Shown here piece after piece: positions 40,182-63,965 of a stretch of 64,000 bases of DNA; within the stretch, counting starts at the first letter, position 1, and each line of letters begins with the position of its first letter. The notes under the pieces are model-generated. The model did not search any database. It saw only the letters and a program-made list of their open reading frames with translations, and was not told where the DNA came from. Position numbers and translations under genes: made by a program. Location: NCBI GenBank assembly GCA_024650045.1, contig JANKMU010000004.1, positions 78,379 through 142,378 of the forward strand, in the 5' to 3' direction. The stretch is from Mycoplasmatota bacterium (GTDB lineage Bacteria > Bacillota_I > Bacilli_A > Acholeplasmatales > Acholeplasmataceae).

Positions 40182-43124
40182 TTATAATCCACTTTCCAAA
40201 ATTGTAAACCATGAACCATATAAGTCATCATAGTTTTGATCATAAACACCAATTGTTGATAATAGATACTCATTCATTTGACGTCTATTGATTTCTCTTA
40301 CAACTTCATATCTAGCTTCGCCTTGAGTATTTCCCCAAGTTGCATCTTCTAATAATTTGAAGATTAATTCACGTTGCATGTATGTATTGTTGTAGCGAGT
40401 TAATACTGGAGTTAAGTAATTGTTAACTGCTGTTTGTACTACTGAAGGTAATACAACACCTTCATCAGTTTTTTGTTCTTTTAAATAGAACTCGATTTGT
40501 GAAGCAGTCAATGTATCTGAATCTTCATTATATACATTTAGTGTTTCATCAGCAGAAACGTATTTACCATCTTCATCTTCATCAGCACTAAAGATTGCGC
40601 TTGTTGTCTTTCTTACATTAGTAGCAAGAATTAAATGCCAACCGAATGATGACTTAACTTCATCTAATGCACTTTCAGTAATAACTGTTCCATATAAATC
40701 AAGGTATGGGAATTTAGATGCATCGTCTTCAATTTCTGCAAGTTGTGCATGAAGTTCCATTGCACGATCGTAGAAGACAGGATCTAATACTGTTTGGCCA
40801 GTGATTTTGTTAGAAGTATTTGTAATAGCAGAAGAGATGTTTTCAAACTTTAAGTAGAAACCTAATTGACGGTATTCAGCCCATAACAATTCGATTTGAT
40901 AATCAAATGGTGGGGTTACACTACCACGTTCAATACGTCCTGAGTTATTAAACTCTGTTGCCATTGCAGATAAACCTTCAGTAAATCCTCTATAGTCTCC
41001 AACCTTGTTATAAATTAATTCAACTAAATCAACGAGTCCATCAAGAACTTGTTGAGCACCAACCTCACCTAAACTTTCAAGATATTCAGTTGGATTATCA
41101 GGCGTACCATCGCCATTTTTATCGAAATAAACGAGTAAGTGACTAACTGTTATTGATTTGAAGTTATTATATTGTAGTTCTGCTAAGTCAGCTAGTTTTT
41201 CATAAATTGTGTAATCTTCAGTTCCGAAGTGTCCTTCGATATCTTCAAGATATTGTTCTCTTAATGCTGGGTAAACGTATAATTGATTTACAGCTTCAGT
41301 GTTTGTTCTTGCACCAAATGCAGTTAATAAGAATTTTTCTCTACCCATACTTGCGGGGAATCCAGAAGTTTCAAAGTTATTTGCAGAAAATTGACTAATT
41401 ATATCTTCAAATTGACTCTTATAATCTTCAAATTCTTCATCTGTAACTGCGTAGTCTTCATTAGCCATTAAGATTTTGTTAGATGCGATATCTAACGCTA
41501 AGTTGATACCATAAGATCTTTCAAGACGTTGATAGAATTCATCAACAGTAATCTCTGCATCTGAGATATCAGCAACAACATCACCAGTCTTAGTATTAGT
41601 TGTTCCTTCATATCCAAATGATTGTTCATAGAATATACGAATAACTGAGTCGTAAATATTTAAATTTAAATCTTCGTATAATTCATTTATTTTTGTTGAA
41701 ATATAGTTGTTGTTCAATTTACCATTGAAGATTCTTTCATATATTTCAGCTTTGATATCCAATGCTTCCTTTGAATCACCAAATATTTGAACATTTTCAT
41801 TTTGTGGATCATCGACAAGGATTCCATCTTCAGAATCACTGTCATCATCTAGTTTGAATACTAAATAACGTGATGAACCAAATGTTTGAACGCGTGCTGA
41901 ATATGGTTTACCTTCAGTTACATCTTCAGGATCATCCATTTGTGCTTCAGCAGTTAATGTTGTGTAAATATGAATTCTTAAACTTGAATTTTGTGTGTTT
42001 AAATCATCATAAGTAATTGTTGAGTTAAAAGTTGAACCACCAACGCCGACGATGTCTCCATCAACATTAATTTCAACTTGAGAAGCAGGGTTTAACATAT
42101 TATAGATATTGACAAATTCTGCTTTAACTTGTGCTGTTGTTAAAGCTTCATCAGCTAAACCTGTATCTCTACTAGTGCTAATTGAGTATTGTTTGTAGTA
42201 GTTTTCATAATCAGCTACAGTGATTTGATCACGATCTTCAAAGTCATTTCCCAATTTACCTAAAATATTCAAATTTTCTAAAATAGATTTAACATGTCCA
42301 TAACCTGTTTGGCTTAAGTCATTCAAATCTATGTAACCAGGGTTACCTGGTAAAATTCTTATATCAGGAATTTTATACCAAAGACCTCTAGAGTCTGATT
42401 TAATACTTGCTTGATATAATGCAGCGTTTGCTTCGTTTAAGTTAATAAAACGAACAACTAATGCATTAACATCATAACGACCTTGCATTGAGTTTTTATA
42501 AGAATTGACAAGATCAGCTTCTTTAATGTAATTTGCATGATCTTCATCAATAACTTCTTCTTCAAGAATTTGTTGTGCATAGTATCTTTGAGTTACTCTT
42601 AATCCATAGCGTTCTACTAAAACAGGAATGCTAGAATAACCTTCATAAATACCAGACAAACCTTGAATGCTATTAATTACTGCTGCAATTTCTATGCTGT
42701 TATCCAATAGGTATAATGAATCTGCAAACTGCTCAATATTTCTAACCCATCTTTCAGGATTTTCGTTGTACATTTTTTCGAGAGACTCTAAATCTGTACC
42801 TCCATGAATGGCGTTATTGATTGTTTCATCTAAATATTTGTTTAGATCTTCATCTCCACTTGCTAGTAAGCCTTTTACAGTTACTAACTCTTCAGCAAAG
42901 ATTTTTTCATCTACCATAGTTGCTAAAACAGAAGCACCTTGCAAACGTAATTGATCATATAATTCTTTTTCCGTTACTACGATATCTCCGATGGTTAAAT
43001 ATGGGTCATCAGAAATACTTCCATAAGGGGTTTTTTCACCGCTCTTGCAAGCAGCCAGTGTAAGTAAACCTGTCAATATTAGCACAAATATGGCAAGTTT
43101 TCTTAAATTTCTTAGTTGATTCAT
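40182..43124 (-). CDS. 980-aa surface lipoprotein with SurA-N-like start and a split parvulin-like PPIase domain (giant PrsA-like foldase)
   Basis: Lipobox LTLAAC. N-terminal chaperone-like segment (TIGDIVVTEKELYDQLRLQGASVLATMVDEKIF). Parvulin signature pieces ITVSHLLVYF ... SSFGWHLILATN lie about 170 aa apart. Confidence 0.5.
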   Translation of the reverse strand: MNQLRNLRKLAIFVLILTGLLTLAACKSGEKTPYGSISDDPYLTIGDIVVTEKELYDQLRLQGASVLATMVDEKIFAEELVTVKGLLASGDEDLNKYLDETINNAIHGGTDLESLEKMYNENPERWVRNIEQFADSLYLLDNSIEIAAVINSIQGLSGIYEGYSSIPVLVERYGLRVTQRYYAQQILEEEVIDEDHANYIKEADLVNSYKNSMQGRYDVNALVVRFINLNEANAALYQASIKSDSRGLWYKIPDIRILPGNPGYIDLNDLSQTGYGHVKSILENLNILGKLGNDFEDRDQITVADYENYYKQYSISTSRDTGLADEALTTAQVKAEFVNIYNMLNPASQVEINVDGDIVGVGGSTFNSTITYDDLNTQNSSLRIHIYTTLTAEAQMDDPEDVTEGKPYSARVQTFGSSRYLVFKLDDDSDSEDGILVDDPQNENVQIFGDSKEALDIKAEIYERIFNGKLNNNYISTKINELYEDLNLNIYDSVIRIFYEQSFGYEGTTNTKTGDVVADISDAEITVDEFYQRLERSYGINLALDIASNKILMANEDYAVTDEEFEDYKSQFEDIISQFSANNFETSGFPASMGREKFLLTAFGARTNTEAVNQLYVYPALREQYLEDIEGHFGTEDYTIYEKLADLAELQYNNFKSITVSHLLVYFDKNGDGTPDNPTEYLESLGEVGAQQVLDGLVDLVELIYNKVGDYRGFTEGLSAMATEFNNSGRIERGSVTPPFDYQIELLWAEYRQLGFYLKFENISSAITNTSNKITGQTVLDPVFYDRAMELHAQLAEIEDDASKFPYLDLYGTVITESALDEVKSSFGWHLILATNVRKTTSAIFSADEDEDGKYVSADETLNVYNEDSDTLTASQIEFYLKEQKTDEGVVLPSVVQTAVNNYLTPVLTRYNNTYMQRELIFKLLEDATWGNTQGEARYEVVREINRRQMNEYLLSTIGVYDQNYDDLYGSWFTILESGL

Positions 43125-46672: not shown

Positions 46673-47254
46673 TTATGCTTTACTTAAATTTTTCTTCACT
46701 AATTCAAGAAAGTATTCATGAACATAGGTGCTATCTGTTAATTCAGGATGAAATGCAGTAGCAATTTGATTACCTTGTCTGCTTGCAACAATGTGATCAT
46801 TAACAACAGATAATACCTCAACATCATCTCCGCATGAAGCGATAAATGGAGCTCTAATAAAAGTCATAGGAATATCGATATTATTGAATTTTGCAAATGT
46901 GAAGAAACTTCCCAATTGTCTGCCATACGCATTTCTTTCAACAGCAATGTCCATTGTTTTAAAATACTCTCGCTCGTCATTTGTTAGTTTTTTAGCTAAT
47001 AAAATCATACCAGCACATGTACCTAAAACTGGAAGTCCATTATTAATCTTTTCTTGAAGTAGATCAAACATTTTTAAATCTTTCAATAATTTTCCCATGG
47101 TCGTACTTTCTCCACCAGGTAGAATCAAACCATCCATAGGAAGTGATAAATCTTTTAATTGTCTGATTTCAAATGATTTAACATTGAGTTTATCAAAAAT
47201 ATGTCTATGTTCAATAAATGCACCTTGAACCGCGAGGATGCCAATCGTTATCAT
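46673..47254 (-). CDS. pdxT: Pyridoxal 5'-phosphate synthase glutaminase subunit
   Basis: IGILAVQGAF N-terminus and catalytic Cys in LGTCAGMILLA, 193 aa. Confidence 0.95.
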   Translation of the reverse strand: MITIGILAVQGAFIEHRHIFDKLNVKSFEIRQLKDLSLPMDGLILPGGESTTMGKLLKDLKMFDLLQEKINNGLPVLGTCAGMILLAKKLTNDEREYFKTMDIAVERNAYGRQLGSFFTFAKFNNIDIPMTFIRAPFIASCGDDVEVLSVVNDHIVASRQGNQIATAFHPELTDSTYVHEYFLELVKKNLSKA

Positions 47255-48138
47255 TACTTGCCTCGTTCTGCCATTAACAATTCAATTTCTTGTTCGTTAA
47301 TACCAACCATGGCTTCACCTAGGTTTTCAGAAATTTCAGCTAAAATTTTTGGGTCGTTAAAATTAGTTACTGCTTTTACGATGGCTTCAGCACGCTTTTT
47401 AGGATCACCTGATTTAAAGATACCTGAACCAACAAATACACCTTCAGCCCCTAGTTGCATCATGAGTGCTGCATCAGCAGGAGTAGCAACTCCTCCAGCT
47501 GCAAAATTTACAACTGGTAATTTCCCATGATCATGAACATATTTTACTAAATCATATGATACACCCATTTGTTTTTGTAAAACATAGAGTTCATCTTCTC
47601 TGAGCGATTGAATTGATCTAATCTCTTTTTGGATTGCTCTCATATGTCTAACTGCTTGGATAATATCTCCGGTTCCTGGTTCACCTTTTGTACGAATCAT
47701 TGCTGCACCTTCCGCAATTCTTCTGAGTGCTTCACCTAAATCTTTTGCTCCGCAAACAAATGGAACCTTAAACTCTTGTTTATTTATATGGTGAACATCA
47801 TCAGCAGGTGATAAAACTTCACTTTCATCAATATAATCAATTTCGATTGCTTCTAATATTTGTGCTTCTACAAAATGTCCAATACGCACCTTTGCCATAA
47901 CAGGAATTGATACTGCCTTTTGAATTTCTTTAATCATTTTTGGATCACTCATGCGTGATACACCACCTACAGCACGAATATCTGCTGGAATTCTTTCCAA
48001 AGCCATAACTGCAACCGCACCTGCAGCTTCAGCTATTTTAGCTTGTTCAGCATTTGATACGTCCATTATGACGCCACCTTTAAGCATTTGTGCTAATTCT
48101 TTGTTTAATTTATATCTTTCGTTATTCATCATTTTCAT
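47254..48138 (-). CDS. pdxS: Pyridoxal 5'-phosphate synthase lyase subunit
   Basis: [24 protein letters not shown] and [13 protein letters not shown] motifs, 294 aa. Confidence 0.97.
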
Positions 48139-48179
48139 TCCTTTCTTGTTTTTTCCTCACTATTATTATAAAATAATAA

Positions 48180-48224
48180 CTGGTATATATAAATAGTCAG
48201 ATTAAGAAAAACAAAGCATACCAG
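48180..48224. promoter_or_regulatory. Candidate PdxR operator: inverted CTGGTAT / ATACCAG half-sites in the pdxS-pdxR intergenic region
   Basis: CTGGTAT at 48180..48186 and its reverse complement ATACCAG at 48218..48224, 38 bp start-to-start. MocR regulators bind spaced ATACCA-like repeats. Confidence 0.4.
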
Positions 48225-48242
48225 ATAAGTTGTGTGATACGA

Positions 48243-49625
48243 ATGAAAATTGGAAAATCAAAATCACCTTTATATGTAGAACTTTATGAGCAAATCAAAA
48301 AAATGATTCAAGAAGGTAAATATCTTGAAAATGAAAAATTGCCATCAAAAAGAAAATTAGGAGCTTCACTAAAAATTAGTCCCTTAACAGTTGATGCAGC
48401 TTATCAACAGTTGATTGCTGAAGGGTATGTTTATTCTATTGAGAAAAGCGGTTATTATGTGTCAAAACAAGTAGAAGTTTTAGAAAACATTAAAAAAGAA
48501 AAATACAAAGTCTCTTATGATACAAATAAAAAAGCGATTAATTATCAATATGAATTTAAAACAAACGTTGTGGACACATCGTTATTTCCAAATGCGACAT
48601 GGGCGAAACTATCTCGTGAAGTTTTATCTGAAAATCATCACGAGATGCTAAACATAACAAATCCTAAAGGTATGGAACCCTTAAGAAAAGAGATTGCTAA
48701 GTATTTAGAGCTTTATCGAGGGATGAAAGTCAATGAAGAACAAATCATTATTGGTTCTGGTACGACATCTTTAATCAGTATGCTCATTGAGATTTTAGGA
48801 AGAAATAAACATTATGCAATTGAAGATCCAGGTTATTCTAAAATTTATCATCTATATAAAGGGAATGATGTAGAACTATCATTGGTCTCTGTTGATGATG
48901 GAGGGCTTCGTGTAGATGCCCTCATTCAATCGAAAGCTAAAATCGTTCATATTACACCATCACACCAATTTCCAACAGGTGTAGTCATGCCTATTCAAAG
49001 AAGAAGTGAATTACTCAATTGGGCGATATCATCAAATAATCATTACATCATTGAAGATGATTATGATTCTGAATTTAGATTTCAAGGAAAACCTATCCCC
49101 GCTCTTCAAGGACTAGATGAACATCAAAAAGTCATCTATATGAATACATTTACTAAAACTTTAGCACCATCTTTTAGAATGAGCTATATGGTTTTACCAG
49201 AAAAGCTACTCAATGATTATCAAGAGATATCATCTCATCATGGATGTACAGTACCTAACTTTGAACAATATATTATGTATAAGTTCATGCATGGAGGATA
49301 TTTTGAAAGACACATCAATCGCATGAAAAATCACTACAGACAAAAAATTGATATCATTTTGAAGACGCTTCAAAATGAACCTCATCTTCAAATCAAAGGG
49401 CATGAAACAGGGCTTCATTTTTTGATGACTATTGATACAGATAAATCAGAAAAAGAAATCATAGAAGAAGCTAAAAAACATGAAATCAATGTATCAGGAC
49501 TCAGTATGTATTATATGAATCAAAAAAACAAGAATACAAAACCTACTCTTGTCATTGGATACTCAGGTATAAAAACCCAAGATATCAATCTATACATGTC
49601 AAAGTTAATTACATTACTGAAATAA
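48243..49625 (+). CDS. pdxR: MocR/GntR-family regulator with an aminotransferase-like effector domain (PdxR-like)
   Basis: N-terminal wHTH (LPSKRKLGASLKISPLTVDAAYQQLIAEGY) plus a fold-type I AAT domain with lysine context FTKTLAPSFRMSY. Divergent from pdxST. The start is moved to ATG 48243. Confidence 0.85.
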   Translation: MKIGKSKSPLYVELYEQIKKMIQEGKYLENEKLPSKRKLGASLKISPLTVDAAYQQLIAEGYVYSIEKSGYYVSKQVEVLENIKKEKYKVSYDTNKKAINYQYEFKTNVVDTSLFPNATWAKLSREVLSENHHEMLNITNPKGMEPLRKEIAKYLELYRGMKVNEEQIIIGSGTTSLISMLIEILGRNKHYAIEDPGYSKIYHLYKGNDVELSLVSVDDGGLRVDALIQSKAKIVHITPSHQFPTGVVMPIQRRSELLNWAISSNNHYIIEDDYDSEFRFQGKPIPALQGLDEHQKVIYMNTFTKTLAPSFRMSYMVLPEKLLNDYQEISSHHGCTVPNFEQYIMYKFMHGGYFERHINRMKNHYRQKIDIILKTLQNEPHLQIKGHETGLHFLMTIDTDKSEKEIIEEAKKHEINVSGLSMYYMNQKNKNTKPTLVIGYSGIKTQDINLYMSKLITLLK

Positions 49626-49672
49626 AATGAAAATGAGAATGCTTTTATTTTCATGTTCAAAGTATATTTTTT

Positions 49673-49693
49673 TATAGTATAATTGATACTATA
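49673..49693. promoter_or_regulatory. Palindromic operator candidate overlapping a TATAAT -10, upstream of the polysaccharide locus
   Basis: TATAGTAT-AATTG-ATACTATA has perfect 8-bp arms. The TATAAT hexamer (49678..49683) lies inside it, 38 nt before ATG 49731. Confidence 0.4.
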
Positions 49694-49730: not shown

Positions 49731-51905
49731 ATGAAAAAACTGATTTTAGGTCTGATTATTTTCTTTGTTTTATTTCTAGTGAGCATTGGTATTCAATTTG
49801 TTATCAACATGCGTATCGATCCAATTCCAATGCGTCCATTGGAATCTTTTAATTCTGGAGGAAGTGACAGATTAATCTATTATTTCGATAAACATTTAAA
49901 AGATGAGGATTTACCTGAAGGTATAGAACTAACCGATGATTTTATCAATCAAGAACTTGAAGGTACATTTAGATACATCAACGGACGTTATGATGTTGCT
50001 GATTTTAGAGTCAATTCTTTAGTTCGCTTATATTTAGGATATAAAGATCACTTGCACCAAGATACACAAGATGATATTAAAGAAGTATTGTTAAACTTTA
50101 AGTATTGGATGGATCAAGGTGGAGAAGACAGCATGTGTTACTGGTCTGAAAATCATCAGATTCTTTTTGCTGTTGAAGAGTATTTAGTAGGACAAACATT
50201 TCCTAATGAAATCTTTACTGTGGATGGAAAAACCGGATTAGAACATATGGAAATGGCAAAAAATAGAATCAATATTTGGATGGAACAACGCTTTACTTAT
50301 GGTTTTACAGAATGGTATTCAAATAACTATTATCCAGAAGATATTTCTCCGATGTCTAATTTCATACAATATTCTGATGATCCAGTTATGGTCAACCGAA
50401 TGAAAATGATTATGGATTTATTGTGGTTTGACATGGCAAGTCAAAGTTTTAAATATGAAGGAAAAGATATGACCAGTGACCTAGATCGAACATATTATAT
50501 ATTTAATTCATCTATGGGTCGTGCATATTCAGATAATAGAGTAAGCGATGATACTGGCAATAGAATGCGCAATTATATTGATTTTGTAATGCAACCAGAA
50601 GAAACCAAGGATTTTGAAAACAGTTGGTTTACTTCAAGTAATGGATTTTTCAATTGCTTTAAACAAATGATGGAAGCTGTTGATGGAAATAATGAACCTT
50701 ATTATCAAATCCCTGATGTCATTAAAGAAATTTTTGATGACTCATCTGAAGAAAAAATATTGAAATCAAGTCAATCATTAAACGTTGAAGATCTTGAAAG
50801 TGAAGGCTTGCTAGGTCTTGAAGATCATCAAATTATGATGCAATGGAATATGGAAGCATTTAGTAATCCTGAAGTTGTTGATAATACAATTCAATATATG
50901 TCAAATCACAACATGTTTAAAAACGAATTTTTAAATGATTTTAAAATGGTCAATTTATGGCCACTTAGAGCATTTAATCTTTTATATATGGTAAGTGATA
51001 AATTAGAGCCAGTAACCAATGGAGTAGCAATAGAAAGAGCAAATGTCTATACATATAAAACACCTTACTACTCAATGCATACAGCTCAAGCTTATCAACC
51101 AGGAGAGTATGCAGATCAACATGCTATATCTTCAGTAAATTTGAGTAATCAAGTATCTGTGTTTTCAACGCAACCTGCTAAGATTCCTAGAAGAAGCGGA
51201 ACTCCAACTTACTGGACAGGAAACGGTAGACAACCATATAGTGTACAAGAAAAGAATGTTAATATTAGTATTTATCAACCACCAACAAAAACAGGTTTTA
51301 TGGAACCGATGATTATAAAAGAAACAACACATGTTTTTTTCCCATATCAGTTATTTGATGAAGTCAATGAATCTTACTTAGATCAAGGGTTCATTTTTGG
51401 ACGTGTTGGCTCAAGTATGATTGGAATAAAGGCTAGATATGAACTAGAGTTTGTTCCATATAGTGTAAGCAGTAATCCCGATGATATGGATGATATGTTG
51501 AAACGTGGAAGCGTTGGTAATGTTTTAACTGAGAAGTATGATTTGGTACAAATAGGTAGTGGAGACCATTATTATGTAACAGAATTATCAAATATAGAAA
51601 ATGAAACTTTTTCTCAGTTCATTAACAGAATGATGGATAATGATCTTAACTATGATGAAACAAATCATTCAATAGTTTATGAAACAGTGTTAAATAATGA
51701 GACTACAGCATCAGAACTTGTAGCAATTTATGATACAAGTTTCTCAGTTAATGGAATGATAAAGGATTTGGAATATCAACGTTATGAAAATGAATATGTT
51801 AAAAACGGAATCATCAATCGTAAACCAGATGAAATAGAATTTTCTTTTAACGGCAAATCTTTATTATTAAATTTCGTAAATCATACTAGAACCGTGGGTA
51901 ATTAA
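49731..51905 (+). CDS. Membrane-anchored/secreted 724-aa protein of unassigned family (paralog A), candidate polysaccharide lyase
   Basis: N-terminal signal-anchor MKKLILGLIIFFVLFLVSIG. It shares motif blocks with ORF 54123..55976 along its whole length (DFRxxxLxRxYLGYK, FKYWMDxxGEDxMCxWSENHQxLF, YGFxEWxSNxYYxEDI, GVAIERANxYTYKTxYY, FSTxP, WxGNG, QxKN). No family recognised by eye. Confidence 0.45.
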   Translation: MKKLILGLIIFFVLFLVSIGIQFVINMRIDPIPMRPLESFNSGGSDRLIYYFDKHLKDEDLPEGIELTDDFINQELEGTFRYINGRYDVADFRVNSLVRLYLGYKDHLHQDTQDDIKEVLLNFKYWMDQGGEDSMCYWSENHQILFAVEEYLVGQTFPNEIFTVDGKTGLEHMEMAKNRINIWMEQRFTYGFTEWYSNNYYPEDISPMSNFIQYSDDPVMVNRMKMIMDLLWFDMASQSFKYEGKDMTSDLDRTYYIFNSSMGRAYSDNRVSDDTGNRMRNYIDFVMQPEETKDFENSWFTSSNGFFNCFKQMMEAVDGNNEPYYQIPDVIKEIFDDSSEEKILKSSQSLNVEDLESEGLLGLEDHQIMMQWNMEAFSNPEVVDNTIQYMSNHNMFKNEFLNDFKMVNLWPLRAFNLLYMVSDKLEPVTNGVAIERANVYTYKTPYYSMHTAQAYQPGEYADQHAISSVNLSNQVSVFSTQPAKIPRRSGTPTYWTGNGRQPYSVQEKNVNISIYQPPTKTGFMEPMIIKETTHVFFPYQLFDEVNESYLDQGFIFGRVGSSMIGIKARYELEFVPYSVSSNPDDMDDMLKRGSVGNVLTEKYDLVQIGSGDHYYVTELSNIENETFSQFINRMMDNDLNYDETNHSIVYETVLNNETTASELVAIYDTSFSVNGMIKDLEYQRYENEYVKNGIINRKPDEIEFSFNGKSLLLNFVNHTRTVGN

Positions 51906-59853: not shown

Positions 59854-60680
59854 AGATTTTTATTGTAGGTTTAGGGTTAATTGGAGCATCCTATGCTGAA
59901 GGATTACATAAAAATGGACATATCGTTTATGGTTATGATCAAAAACAAGAAAACATTAAAGAAGCAATTGAATTAGGATTTATCGAAAAAGATAACGAGT
60001 TAGATAAAATCAGCAAAGTTGATTTAGTCATTCTTTCACTTTATCCTAAAGATAATGTAGCATTTATAAAAGAACATAAATCGTTATTAACACCTGGGCA
60101 GATGATAACTGATGTAAGTGGAACAAAGGTATGGATGATGGAAGAAATAGAAGAAATACTTCCAGAAAAAATATCTTATACTTCACATCATCCTATGGCA
60201 GGAAAAGAAACCAGTGGTTTCCAGCATAGAGATTATAGAATGTTTCGTCATGCTAACTTCTTAATTGTTACAGGCAAAAAAAGTATTAAAAAAGACCAAG
60301 AAGTCTTAAGACTTATCGCAAACAACTTAAAATTTGGTAAAATAACAGTAGTAGACGCGAAAACACATGATGAACTCATCGCTTTCACGAGCCAATTAAC
60401 TCATATATTAGCAATATCACTTGTGCAAAGTGATCATTTAAATGAAACCAAACATGCAACAGGTGATTCTTATCGAGACTTAACAAGAATTGCGAAAATC
60501 AATGAAAACATGTGGACTGAGTTATTTCTTGAAAATAAAGATGCATTAATTAAAAAACTTAATGACTTTATTAAAGAACTCAAACATGTTAAGGAACTCA
60601 TATTAGTTGAAGATAAAGAAAGTTTAACAACATATTTAAAGGAAGCTAAAGAGAAGAGGAAATCTTTTGACGTTCATTAA
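59850..60680 (+). CDS. tyrA: Prephenate dehydrogenase
   Basis: Rossmann N-terminus MKIFIVGLGLIGAS and SHHPMAG catalytic His region. ATGA overlap with aroF. Confidence 0.88.
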   Translation: MKIFIVGLGLIGASYAEGLHKNGHIVYGYDQKQENIKEAIELGFIEKDNELDKISKVDLVILSLYPKDNVAFIKEHKSLLTPGQMITDVSGTKVWMMEEIEEILPEKISYTSHHPMAGKETSGFQHRDYRMFRHANFLIVTGKKSIKKDQEVLRLIANNLKFGKITVVDAKTHDELIAFTSQLTHILAISLVQSDHLNETKHATGDSYRDLTRIAKINENMWTELFLENKDALIKKLNDFIKELKHVKELILVEDKESLTTYLKEAKEKRKSFDVH

Positions 60681-61680
60681 AATGCCAGATTACTCCATTT
60701 ACATCGAAGATAAAGGATTAGAAAATCTTTCCAAGTATATCGAAGAAGTTTATGATTATAAAGATGTTTTTGTTGTTACTGATCAAACAGTTTACAAACT
60801 ATATCATCAAAGACTTATCGATGCACTACCAGATTTTAGAATCTCTTTTGTCATTATCGAGGATGGAGAAAAATCCAAATCAATAGAAGTCTACCAACAA
60901 ACGATTGAAAAATTAATCGAACAAGGGATGAAACGTAACCATTTATTGATATCTTTAGGTGGAGGCGTTGTTGGTGACCTTGCTGGTTTTGTTGCTGCAA
61001 CACTTTATCGTGGAGTTTCTTATATACAAATCCCAACAACTTTACTCGCTCAAGTAGATAGCAGTATAGGAGGCAAAGTAGCAATCGATTTAAAAGAAGG
61101 TAAAAATCTAATTGGTGCTTTCTATAATCCTAAATTTGTTCTTATAGATATTAATTTTTTAAAAACTCTAGAAAAAAGAGAATATGCAAATGGTCTGGCT
61201 GAAATGATAAAAGCTGGCTTAATTGGTGATAAAAAACTATATAACTACATACTAGAAAATGAAACAGTTGGTATTGAAGAAATCACCAGAGCTATACATG
61301 TAAAAAGAGAGGTAGTTTTAGCAGATCCCTTTGATCATAAAGAAAGAATGTATTTAAACTTTGGACATACATTTGGACATGCTATAGAAAAAACACACGG
61401 ATATGATTTATATAAGCATGGCGAAGCAATTAGTTATGGCATGCTTATAGCACTTGAAATTGGAGTCCATTTAAACGAAACTAAACCTGAATTATATGAA
61501 GAAGTTAAAAACCTTCTTATCAAGAGAGGTTTAGTAAAAGAACCTTTGTTACAATTAAATGATTATAAAGATGAAATTAAAACTGATAAGAAAAACTTAG
61601 CTGATGGTTTTCATTTTATTCTAGTCACTAGAGTAGGAGAAGTTAAAATTAAAATATTGAAGTTGAGTGATCTCTCATGA
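60667..61680 (+). CDS. aroB: 3-dehydroquinate synthase
   Basis: GGGVVGDLAGF, PTTLLAQVDSSIGGK and NFGHTFGHAIE motifs. The start is either TTG 60667 (after GAAGAGGA) or ATG 60682. Confidence 0.92.
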   Translation: MTFIKMPDYSIYIEDKGLENLSKYIEEVYDYKDVFVVTDQTVYKLYHQRLIDALPDFRISFVIIEDGEKSKSIEVYQQTIEKLIEQGMKRNHLLISLGGGVVGDLAGFVAATLYRGVSYIQIPTTLLAQVDSSIGGKVAIDLKEGKNLIGAFYNPKFVLIDINFLKTLEKREYANGLAEMIKAGLIGDKKLYNYILENETVGIEEITRAIHVKREVVLADPFDHKERMYLNFGHTFGHAIEKTHGYDLYKHGEAISYGMLIALEIGVHLNETKPELYEEVKNLLIKRGLVKEPLLQLNDYKDEIKTDKKNLADGFHFILVTRVGEVKIKILKLSDLS

Positions 61681-62936
61681 ATATAACCATAACACCTAAA
61701 AAACTTTCAGGACAAGTTTTAGTTGTTTCATCTAAATCATTATCGCATCGTTATTTGATTGCTGCTGGTTTAGCAAATGGTACGAGTACAATCAATAACA
61801 TTTTAGATTCTGATGATTTAGAAGCTACTAAAGAAGCATTAAAGTCTTTAGGAGTTTTAATTGATAGAAACTATATAACAGGTGGGAATCTTAAAAAGGT
61901 CAACGAAACAATAGACGCTAAAGAATCTGGATCAACACTGAGGTTTATGATTCCAATCGCAATGCTTTTAAGAGATAAAATAACTTTTACTGGACAAGGA
62001 AGGTTACCAAAAAGACCATTAGATGTCTATTTTGATATCTTTAAACAAAAACATTGTTACTATAAACAATTGTCAGATGACTATTTACCACTCGAAGTCA
62101 AAGGACAATTGAAAGCAGGTTTTTATCAAGTTCAGGGAGATATCAGTTCTCAGTTTTTAACAGGACTTTTATTCGCATTACCGTTATTAAAAAAAGATTC
62201 GGTTATAGAACTTATTACACCATTAGAATCTAAAGGTTATATTGATTTAACAATGGACGTTTTAAAATCTTTTGGTATTGAAATTGTCCATGTAGATGAG
62301 TTTATTTACATTAAAGGTAGTCAATCATATTTACCACAAAATGTAACCGTAGAAGGTGATTATTCTCAAGCTGCATTTTGGATGGTTGCCGGATTAATTG
62401 GAAACAATATCGAACTACTTAATTTAGCACTAGACAGTAAACAAGGTGATAAAAAAATAATTGAAGTCATCAAAGAAATGAATGGAAATATTACCTATAA
62501 AAGTCTATCGAAATCTTATGTAATAGAACCAAGTCTAACCAAAGAGGCAACAATTGATTTGAAGCATGTACCCGATCTTGGACCTATACTAATGGTGCTA
62601 GCTGCACTTAGTGAAGGAACAACAAAATTTATTAATACAAGCCGTCTGAGAATTAAAGAATCTGATCGCCTTCAAGCGATGTATGACGTTTTAACGAAGT
62701 TTAATGTAGATATGGAAATATTGGGTGATGAAGCGATAATCCATGGTAGAAGGATTTTAAAAGGTCATCAAAGCTTTGATTCATATGGCGATCATAGAAT
62801 TGCGATGGCAATCGCAATTGCAGCAATTAAAGCAGATGGACCTGTTACTATAATAAATGCTGGAGTAGTCAGCAAATCGTACCCAAATTTTTTCAAAGTA
62901 TATGAATCTTTAGGAGGTATCATTCATGAGTCTTGA
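61677..62936 (+). CDS. aroA: 3-phosphoshikimate 1-carboxyvinyltransferase (EPSP synthase)
   Basis: SSKSLSHR, ESGSTLRF, KESDR and GDHRIAMA motifs, 419 aa. Confidence 0.93.
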   Translation: MNITITPKKLSGQVLVVSSKSLSHRYLIAAGLANGTSTINNILDSDDLEATKEALKSLGVLIDRNYITGGNLKKVNETIDAKESGSTLRFMIPIAMLLRDKITFTGQGRLPKRPLDVYFDIFKQKHCYYKQLSDDYLPLEVKGQLKAGFYQVQGDISSQFLTGLLFALPLLKKDSVIELITPLESKGYIDLTMDVLKSFGIEIVHVDEFIYIKGSQSYLPQNVTVEGDYSQAAFWMVAGLIGNNIELLNLALDSKQGDKKIIEVIKEMNGNITYKSLSKSYVIEPSLTKEATIDLKHVPDLGPILMVLAALSEGTTKFINTSRLRIKESDRLQAMYDVLTKFNVDMEILGDEAIIHGRRILKGHQSFDSYGDHRIAMAIAIAAIKADGPVTIINAGVVSKSYPNFFKVYESLGGIIHES

Positions 62937-63180
62937 TAAATATAGAAAAATGATTGACGATATCGATATCAAAATGATGGACTTGTTTGAGAAAAGAATG
63001 CAAGTCTCTTTATTGATAGGCAAATATAAGAAAGATCATCAACTACCTATATTAGATAACAGTAGAGAAATAGAAATCTTAAACAAGAGAAAACAACAAT
63101 TAAACAATGATGAACTTTGGCCACACTATGAATCATTCATTAAAGAAATTATGCGTCTATCTAAGGAGTATCAAAAGTGA
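62926..63180 (+). CDS. Monofunctional AroQ-type chorismate mutase
   Basis: 84 aa, helical. R...IDDIDIKMMDLFEKRM and SREIEIL patterns match the AroQ class. Confidence 0.8.
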   Translation: MSLDKYRKMIDDIDIKMMDLFEKRMQVSLLIGKYKKDHQLPILDNSREIEILNKRKQQLNNDELWPHYESFIKEIMRLSKEYQK

Positions 63181-63965
63181 AGATGCGCTATGGCTTAATA
63201 GGTAAAAATATTCAATACAGTAAATCTCCTAAAATTCATGAGTTCATGGCTAAAAAACTAAACATTGATTTACGCTATGATTTGTTTGATATCGATGAAT
63301 CTGACATTCCACATTTGTTTAAACATTTGAGAAATAATGTTTTCAAAGGTTTCAATGTAACGATTCCATTTAAACAGATTATGATGAAACATGTTGATGT
63401 TCTCACTTCCAAGGCAAAACGAATTAAGGCAGTAAATACCATTTATTTAAAAGATGGAAAAATAGTTGGAGATAACACTGATTATGACGGCTTCTTAGGT
63501 TTGATTAAGATGAGTAAAATTAATGTTGAAAATCAAAAGATCTTTATTTTAGGAACTGGTGGTGCAGCAAAAGCTGCATATGTAGTTTTAACTGATCTCG
63601 GAGCAGACGTTACTGTCGTGACTAGGAATACAAACAGTATAGATCCTATGTTTAATAAGGTTGTTACTTATAATAAGTTATTCTCTGATCAAGTTGATAT
63701 CTATGTTCAAGCAACACCAATTGGAACGTATCCAAAAGTAACAGAATCTGTTTTAAATCAATCATTGGTTGCAGGTAAAACAGTTATAGAACTAATTTAT
63801 AATCCACCAATCACACAAATCATGAAGTATGCTAGTAAAAGTTATGGTGGTGTAAATATGTTAATATTACAAGCTTTAAAAAGTGAAGAAATATGGTTTA
63901 ATCAAAAAATCAGCATAAGCAATCAGTTAATAGAAGAATTAAAGGAAGTGATTTATAGTGAATAG
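63177..63965 (+). CDS. aroE: Shikimate dehydrogenase
   Basis: YGLIGKNIQYSKSP N-terminus, NVTIPFK, NTDYDGF and GTGGAAKA motifs. Confidence 0.92.
   Translation: MKMRYGLIGKNIQYSKSPKIHEFMAKKLNIDLRYDLFDIDESDIPHLFKHLRNNVFKGFNVTIPFKQIMMKHVDVLTSKAKRIKAVNTIYLKDGKIVGDNTDYDGFLGLIKMSKINVENQKIFILGTGGAAKAAYVVLTDLGADVTVVTRNTNSIDPMFNKVVTYNKLFSDQVDIYVQATPIGTYPKVTESVLNQSLVAGKTVIELIYNPPITQIMKYASKSYGGVNMLILQALKSEEIWFNQKISISNQLIEELKEVIYSE

Follow-up and report, generated by a model that had tools for sequence, protein, structure and literature searches.

The locus and its genes

The window analysed here is a stretch of 64,000 nucleotides from a Mycoplasmatota bacterium of the Acholeplasmataceae (assembly GCA_024650045.1, contig JANKMU010000004.1, positions 78,379 to 142,378 of the forward strand), and the coordinates given below are positions within it. 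It contains a five-gene unit in the order copy A, a TIM barrel, a GPH symporter, copy B and a hydrolase of the glycoside hydrolase (GH) families GH88/GH105. A and B belong to one protein family, whose predicted fold is that of a class of polysaccharide lyases (PLs) and which is probably a new lyase-type family. The unit comprises the following elements:

49656-49683, + strand: promoter-like site, TTCAAA-16-TATAAT, a consensus match only
49731-51905, + strand: copy A, 724 residues, membrane-anchored (or exported) member of an unannotated lyase-like family
49734-49811, + strand: hydrophobic helix at the N-terminus of A (residues 2-27), which is either a signal anchor or a signal peptide
51908-52666, + strand: xylose-isomerase-like TIM-barrel enzyme (AP_endonuc_2, PF01261), 252 residues, starting 2 bp after A
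52679-54112, + strand: GPH-family (MFS_2) glycoside/uronide:cation symporter, 477 residues
54123-55976, + strand: copy B, 617 residues, cytoplasmic member of the same lyase-like family as A
55966-57021, + strand: GH105/GH88-type unsaturated uronyl hydrolase, 351 residues
57035-57064, + strand: intrinsic terminator, a 13-bp stem followed by a T run, which closes the operon

The promoter-like site is the only one of its kind in the 105-bp gap between PdxR and A. From A onwards the first three intergenic distances are 2, 12 and 10 bp, and the end of B overlaps the hydrolase gene by 11 nt. The hydrolase has its own ribosome-binding site (GAAAGGAG) before its ATG at 55966. The start of B is supported by homologs that begin at an identical MAVKEDVGM, and an AAGGAGG ribosome-binding site is found close 5' of its ATG.

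A preliminary description of this DNA had proposed that A and B form a paralog pair aligning over their whole length. BLASTP bears this out, with 35% identity and 55% positives over 638 columns (E 7e-128, well past chance), and every shared block that had been quoted was found at the expected place in both proteins, ADQHA/GDQQH, FSTQP/FSTHP and HVFFP/HFYFP among them. The hydrophobic N-terminal segment proposed as an anchor is likewise present in A and absent from B (Kyte-Doolittle maximum 2.8 versus 0.94). It consists of MKK followed by a 22-residue hydrophobic stretch, modelled by AlphaFold2 as a helix at residues 2-27, and by the positive-inside rule it would place the catalytic domain of A outside the cell. 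The additional length of A, first put at ~90 residues, amounts to 107: the anchor and linker account for ~40, and several insertions within the protein for the rest.

The remaining three genes have recognisable relatives. The best PDB relative of the TIM-barrel enzyme is 8BVK, an Agrobacterium O-glycoside (3-keto) beta-eliminase (E 1.6e-13), and the protein is near IolE as well. The symporter scores 222.6 bits against PF13347 (cut-off 27) and 213.1 bits against TIGR00792, slightly below the cut-off of 231. The hydrolase matches PF07470 with an E-value of 1.8e-49, and among solved structures it is closest to YteR-type GH105 enzymes. Its D133 ('IWVD133SL', 56362-56364) aligns with the catalytic D143 of YteR ('WLD143GL'), so that the Asp is kept. 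The possibility that this neighbour is a GH154 dehydratase was considered and rejected, on account of the YteR-type relatives, the conserved catalytic Asp and the absence of the GH154 structure 9O4U from its sequence matches.

Predicted fold of A and B

The A/B family is a sequence orphan. Pfam and NCBIfam searches of A and B gave noise only, phmmer of both proteins against all PDB chains gave no match, and neither did hmmsearch against the same chains with family profiles built from 38 and 101 sequences. Since neither hidden Markov model (HMM) nor pairwise similarity places the two proteins in an existing family of the toroid-plus-beta-sheet PLs, among which PL8, PL12, PL15, PL17, PL21, PL23, PL35 and PL39 are counted, the A/B family lies outside PL12, PL15, PL17 and PL35. 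A literature search found no published description of the family, and one for the family numbers PL43-48 returned noise only.

AlphaFold2 models based on the family alignment are confident for both proteins, with a predicted local distance difference test score (pLDDT) of 90.9 and a predicted template-modelling score (pTM) of 0.93 for B, and values of 89.7 and 0.91 for A. Both models combine a helical N-terminal domain with a C-terminal beta-sandwich. In B the helical part extends over residues ~33-352, with seven long helices at 33-196 followed by ~140 residues of short helices, and the beta domain occupies residues 360-617. When the B model was compared with the PDB by Foldseek, all 10 matches at E<=1e-3 were toroid-plus-beta-sheet polysaccharide lyases, including heparinase III (PL12), Atu3025 (PL15), heparinase II (PL21) and chondroitinase ABC (PL8), as well as Alg17c (PL17) and the GAGases II and VII (PL35). 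The A model gave four significant matches, to heparinase III (probability 1.00), dermatan sulfate epimerase 1 (DS-epimerase 1), Atu3025 and GAGase VII. Glycoside hydrolase and phosphorylase folds appeared for either model only at E>0.1 and probability <0.3.

According to these models, A and B share a shortened alpha/alpha toroid and an antiparallel beta-sandwich, the fold class of PL8, PL12, PL15, PL17, PL21 and PL35. This is the resemblance to toroid lyases that had been suggested from the letters alone. The outcome named there as a refutation, a fold unrelated to the alpha-toroid lyases, did not arise with AlphaFold2 and Foldseek, the strong PDB matches being only toroid-plus-beta-sheet uronate lyases and DS-epimerase 1, whose mechanism is related. 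A search of a viral structure library was uninformative, with three matches only, all to unnamed or uncharacterised proteins.

Candidate catalytic residues

In the published catalytic triplets of this fold class, the neutralising residue is an Asn (often within N-H or H-N), the Tyr comes 52-57 residues after it and the third member is a distal His of the beta domain, as exemplified by PL15 exoHep (N336-H337/Y390), PL17 (N201/Y258), PL21 (H202/Y257), PL39 (N186-H187/Y239) and PL35 (N192/Y246) (PMC12088678, Table 4). The arrangement of N-H, ~55 residues and Y to which the preliminary description had referred is therefore a published one. In A and B, the candidates for these positions are the following:

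50142-50159, + strand: WSENHQ of A (residues 138-143; E140, N141, H142), invariant in the alignment, the candidate carboxylate-neutralising Asn-His
50310-50333, + strand: EWYSNNYY of A (residues 194-201; E194, Y200, Y201), which holds the candidate catalytic Tyr
54411-54428, + strand: WSENHQ of B (residues 97-102), with E99 invariant and N100/H101 conserved in at least 90% of 101 diverse sequences
54579-54602, + strand: EWHSNTYY of B (residues 153-160; E153, S156, Y159, Y160), with Y159 at least 90% conserved
55284-55298, + strand: GDQQH of B (D389, Q390, H392), with H392 as the distal catalytic His candidate, by position only

Y200 of A lies 58-59 residues after N141/H142, and Y159 of B is at the same distance from N100/H101, as against 52-57 residues in the known lyase families. 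An earlier range of 54-59 residues is thus correct at its upper end, which leads to the invariant Tyr, whereas the value of 54 referred to Y196 of A, a position occupied by His in B. In the B model, N100-H101 lies at the N-terminus of helix 99-115 and Y159 at the N-terminus of helix 157-173, so that N-H and Y open helices i and i+2. H392 is found ~40 residues into the beta domain of B, the distance usual for the distal His.

Over the 101 family sequences, which reach down to 25% identity, E99, W142 and P433 (B numbering) are invariant, and N100, H101, E153, S156, Y159, D188, R209, Y253, Q390 and H464 are at least 90% conserved. The conserved residues are invariant over anchored and cytoplasmic forms alike, and a 27%-identical haloarchaeal member keeps the same set. 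This pattern supports a mapping of N-H and Y onto the lyase catalytic residues, at the level of candidates.

One stretch of the beta domain differs between lineages. The block at residues 478-482 of A (51162-51176) and 405-409 of B (55335-55349) reads FSTQP in all anchored Acholeplasmataceae copies of 720-730 residues and F(S/T)THP in nearly all other members, and in the same Acholeplasmataceae A-types the His of the DQQH motif has moved by one position. Together, these two changes may represent a lineage-specific change of catalytic base or specificity.

Distribution and genomic context

A word-indexed search recovered 1,311 family proteins, among which all named ones are labelled 'hypothetical', and an exhaustive search yielded 1,799 family clusters at 50% identity. 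In species-representative genomes, at least 583 stretches match the family. The taxa concerned include Mycoplasmatota, Bacillota, Spirochaetota, Chloroflexota, Actinomycetota, Bacteroidota, Gammaproteobacteria, Planctomycetota and an archaeal metagenome-assembled genome, and 199 plasmid records also carry the family, chiefly megaplasmids of Rhizobium and Sinorhizobium but also plasmids of Haladaptatus. The nearest named relative belongs to Peloplasma aerotolerans (85%), the published description of which contains no polysaccharide tests. Strain M4Ah of this species has the cassette of the window at 85-86% identity.

The division into one anchored and one cytoplasmic copy, already proposed for the pair in the window, is seen family-wide. 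N-terminal hydropathy and a maximum-likelihood tree separate two clades, each spread over several phyla. The anchored forms, of 650-730 residues, carry one hydrophobic helix at the N-terminus and behind it a conserved N..I...P.RP segment; the cytoplasmic forms have ~610-625 residues. As A and B fall into two ancient clades, each spanning several phyla, they are not recent duplicates, and an origin by recent tandem or local duplication was rejected. Duplication has also occurred within the anchored clade, given that two anchored-type copies stand in tandem in a Paraglaciecola metagenome-assembled genome (L075:3291-7251) and that a Clostridia metagenome-assembled genome (L066) likewise has two anchored copies.

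The neighbours of the family were counted in 80 distinct loci (±7 kb, many of them incomplete). A GPH symporter is present in 66 of these loci, GH88/105 in 55, the TIM barrel in 29 and a second family member in 24. Rarer neighbours are a KduD-like SDR (12 loci), KduI (10), Gfo/Idh/MocA (8), an IclR regulator (7) and ThuA (6). Every locus with KduI has GH88. The idea that the TIM barrel replaces KduI was rejected, as both are present in 8 of the 10 KduI loci.

Adjacency was then expressed per gene, counting directly adjoining genes on the same strand and, for GH88/105, those within 150 bp or fused. The census contains 102 family genes, of which 63 are of the cytoplasmic type and 39 carry an N-terminal anchor; the subtype was assigned by N-terminal hydropathy, since classification by bit score proved unreliable. 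The cytoplasmic type adjoins a GPH symporter in 53/63 cases (84%) and GH88/105 in 45/63 (71%; 42 adjacent and 3 fused), as against a TIM barrel in 2/63. The anchored type adjoins a TIM barrel in 18/39 cases, a GPH symporter in 11/39 and GH88/105 in 4/39. On these counts, the family is linked in the genome to enzymes that use unsaturated uronates (GH88/GH105, KduI, KduD). In 42 loci the cytoplasmic type occurs alone, with no anchored partner.

Fusions point in the same direction, with GH88 joined to the family domain in 5 of the 8 long family members, in both domain orders. The gene order of the window recurs in a spirochaete and the B-MFS-GH88 order in an Anaerolineae genome, and in Rhizobium leguminosarum 10 bp separate the end of an intact family gene from the annotated GH88 gene that follows it. 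On a Haladaptatus plasmid, the pairing of an anchored-type member with a TIM barrel (L085:10830-11720) recurs, accompanied by many Gfo/Idh/MocA genes and no GH88.

Comparison with known systems

Heparinase III of Bacteroides thetaiotaomicron (PL12, 4FNV/4MMH) is the best fold match of both A (E 3e-5) and B (E 6e-6), at a probability of 1.00. It has an incomplete alpha/alpha toroid and a beta-sheet domain, with an Asn-Tyr-His triplet formed by N240, Y294 and H424. However, it shares only 9% identity with A and B, without an HMM-level relation and with template-modelling (TM) scores of 0.31-0.36, and in A and B the N-H and Y lie much earlier in the helical domain, which has an extra subdomain of ~140 residues in short helices.

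PL15 (Atu3025, exoHep) and PL17 (Alg17c) have the same fold class as A and B; in these enzymes a Tyr follows the N-H dyad at a distance of 53-57 residues. As exo-lyases located inside the cell or in the periplasm, they complete the breakdown of imported oligomers, a role like that proposed for B. On the other hand, they have no sequence similarity to A and B, and the A/B family is tied to GH88/105, whereas oligoalginate lyases directly yield the unsaturated monomer and do not depend on GH88/105. PL35, with the GAGases and BcPL35, is again of the toroid-plus-beta-sheet fold, and the fold matches include 8KHV and 8KHW. Its members carry an Asn/Tyr/His triplet, for which A and B offer candidate residues, and are functionally paired with GH88. 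PL35 enzymes can be identified from their sequence, are secreted and act as endo-lyases in Bacteroidota polysaccharide utilisation loci (PULs); A and B give no match to them, and their family shows the anchored/cytoplasmic split.

Habitual co-localisation with GH88/GH105 is shared by the A/B family with GH154 (BcGDH, 9O4U) and with P29_PDnc of PL37. GH154 enzymes are single (alpha/alpha)6 domains of ~380 residues, as opposed to the two domains and 617-724 residues of A and B; the comparison of 9o4u with the A model gave an E-value of 0.22 and a probability of 0.47, and there was no sequence match. For P29_PDnc (WP_038530528.1), the published residue list proposes Asp248 and Lys303 in place of Asn-His/Tyr. 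In both GH154 and PL37 the leaving group is water and not a sugar.

PL42 enzymes are beta-propellers, and neither PL42 nor PL27 is related to A and B in fold or sequence. The exo L-Rha-alpha-1,4-GlcA lyases of these families are a mechanistic analogy only for the reaction proposed for B: an exo-lyase of the PL42 FoRham1 type releases the neutral sugar bound at O4 of a uronate, and the unsaturated uronate that remains goes to a GH105-type enzyme (PMC8377490). Finally, human DS-epimerase 1 (6HZN) is the second fold match of A (E 4e-5, TM 0.18). It starts with the same chemical step, in which a uronate loses its C5 proton, but it is a eukaryotic biosynthetic epimerase and forms no unsaturated product.

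The novelty of the A/B family relative to these systems lies in its sequence-orphan status, in a predicted shortened toroid with an added helical subdomain, in the ancient division between anchored and cytoplasmic forms, and in a systematic coupling to GPH symporters and GH88/105.

Proposed function and alternatives

The reading that we favour, with a probability of roughly 0.58, is that A and B represent a large uncharacterised family of uronate beta-eliminases with a polysaccharide-lyase-type fold and action. In this model, the Asn-His would neutralise the C6 carboxylate and a Tyr/His pair would abstract H5, whereupon the substituent at O4 would leave and a 4,5-unsaturated uronate would be formed. 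A, tethered on the outside of the single membrane of a wall-less mollicute, would cut an acidic glycan to oligosaccharides by beta-elimination, and an enzyme located outside the cell, as expected for the anchored forms, suits such a depolymerising role. The GPH symporter would import the resulting oligomers. B would then act as a cytoplasmic exo- or oligosaccharide lyase, exposing a 4,5-unsaturated uronate at the non-reducing end, which the GH105-type hydrolase would remove; elsewhere in the family, KduI and KduD would carry the product onward. Alternation of B and the GH105 enzyme could take an oligomer of alternating uronate and neutral sugar to monosaccharides without any other glycosidase, which would explain both the minimal GPH-B-GH105 triad and the GH88 fusions. 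As the hydrolase is YteR-like, rhamnose-uronate glycans such as rhamnogalacturonan-I, ulvan-like glycans or gum-arabic caps are attractive candidates for the substrate. What the analysis shows is the paralogy, fold class, operon organisation, counts of genomic neighbours, fusions and conserved residues; the chemistry, the membrane topology of A, the sharing of exo and endo work between the two copies and the substrate are inferred.

Several observations weigh against this proposal. The A/B family has no sequence-level link to PL families, Pfam models or PDB chains, even by profiles, and the fold matches stand at 8-9% identity with TM-scores of only 0.2-0.36, and therefore denote a relationship at the level of the fold class and not family membership. 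The N-H and Y are placed at ~22% and 40% of the helical domain, compared with 50-76% in the known lyases, so that their mapping to the known catalytic residues is not proven. Y253 or Y211 could be the catalytic Tyr instead of Y159, and the distal His is ambiguous among H392, H408 and H464, with A having a Gln at the H408 position. Some members adjoin Gfo/Idh/MocA, ThuA and TIM-barrel genes without GH88, and the substrate of A and B is defined at the candidate level only. In addition, GH154 and PL37 P29_PDnc, which are also co-localised with GH88/105, proved to be dehydratases and not lyases (PMC12269599, PMC8511951).

This last point leads to the strongest alternative, namely that B is no lyase of glycosidic bonds but dehydrates uronates at the non-reducing end, an activity that may extend to the whole cytoplasmic clade. 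Water, or methanol in the case of a 4-O-methyl uronate, would be lost across C4-C5 of the saturated terminal uronate of an imported aldobiouronic-type oligosaccharide, which would thereby be primed for GH105 as it is by GH154 BcGDH and PL37 P29_PDnc. The fold would support this reaction equally, as it involves the same C5 deprotonation and O4 elimination, and both non-hydrolase families known to lie habitually beside GH88/GH105 are such dehydratases (PMC12269599, PMC8511951). Moreover, the core GPH-B-GH105 triad usually comes without any other glycosidase, which suits a disaccharide substrate, and the 42 cytoplasmic-only loci have no extracellular partner to make unsaturated ends. Against this, the family is unrelated to GH154 in sequence and domain layout, with 9o4u reaching only the weak fold score given above, and the Asp/Lys set proposed for P29_PDnc is not seen in A and B, judging from the published residue list. 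The strong fold matches are all true lyases, and the anchored members have every conserved residue in common with the cytoplasmic ones, while an extracellular dehydratase makes little sense. We consider this alternative unlikely, but the one that survives best.

A related version, to which a similarly low likelihood is given, regards the A/B family as neither an ordinary lyase nor one of the two known dehydratase families, but as a third independently evolved 'priming' eliminase, or as an eliminase scaffold that serves two routes. In the latter case the cytoplasmic clade would make unsaturated uronate ends for GH88/105, and the anchored clade, with its OGE/IolE-like TIM barrel and sometimes Gfo/Idh/MocA and ThuA, would feed a keto-sugar elimination.

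According to a further and rather improbable explanation, the family is not specific for uronates and acts as a C5-epimerase, a hydrolase or an eliminase of the 3-keto-sugar route, the link to GH105 reflecting a shared substrate. The position of human DS-epimerase 1 as second-best fold match of A would fit the first of these activities. For the keto-sugar route speak the OGE/IolE-like TIM barrel adjoining anchored-type genes in 18/39 cases, its closest solved relative being a 3-keto-glycoside beta-eliminase, and the loci, an archaeal plasmid included, that have Gfo/Idh/MocA and ThuA and no GH88. Many conserved acidic residues (D47, D50, E99, E153, D188, D473) are also unusual for an enzyme that binds an anion. 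Nevertheless, the 71% adjacency or fusion of cytoplasmic members to GH88/105, together with the recurrent KduI and KduD, points to unsaturated uronates; hydrolase and phosphorylase folds stayed at the insignificant Foldseek scores already mentioned; and an epimerase would have no obvious place in a compact catabolic operon.

In a last and very improbable reading, only B is active, and A is a surface binding protein that arose from the enzyme with altered or lost catalysis. In its favour are the Gln that A and all Acholeplasmataceae A-types of 720-730 residues carry for the widely conserved FSTHP His, their shifted DQQH His and their long branch in the family tree. Against it, A keeps E140, N141, H142, E194, Y200, R264, Y266, Q463 and H534, still has a His in the DQ(Q)H motif and is 58-86% identical among relatives.

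Other features of the window

Upstream of the operon, pdxT and pdxS (- strand) lie beside a divergent MocR-type PdxR (46673-49625), which scores 570 bits with the PdxR equivalog model. The sugar cassette, for which the window contains no dedicated regulator, lies immediately beside PdxR. PdxR was considered as the cassette regulator and rejected, being the equivalog regulator of the divergent pdxST. An antisense open reading frame inside pdxS (47201-47530) appears spurious. Further upstream, the window encodes a 980-residue protein with a lipoprotein-type N-terminus (...LTLAAC...; 40182-43124, - strand).

Downstream of the terminator, a PadR regulator (58172-58522, - strand) is apparently co-transcribed with a 366-residue membrane protein (the pair spans 57082-58522). 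The latter has an N-terminal HAAS domain followed by four repeats of ~45 residues, each a transmembrane hairpin, with the motif ...SPF(V/I)...LW(H/N)P(G/A)WLVFL(L/I)IP.... The pair is kept beside the cassette in five related loci. It is followed at 58834-63965 by a shikimate-pathway run that, from the translations, comprises a DAHP-synthase-like protein, prephenate dehydrogenase, aroB, aroA and aroE.

Significance

Under either form of the priming-eliminase version, the A/B family would merit a new family at the CAZy level. If the favoured reading is true, ~1,800 clusters (50% identity) that are now 'hypothetical' would gain a function, among them clusters from Pseudomonadota (Rhizobium megaplasmids included), Actinomycetota, Planctomycetota and Archaea. 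For the many 'orphan' GH88/GH105 genes without a lyase that can be recognised in the neighbourhood, the step that makes their substrate, so far missing from acidic-glycan catabolism, could then be predicted from the genome, and the family would offer a new scaffold to produce or analyse uronate oligosaccharides. For the wall-less bacteria to which this organism belongs, it would define a minimal transporter-coupled route, formed by an anchored enzyme, a GPH symporter, a cytoplasmic enzyme and GH105, that operates without PUL or ABC machinery.

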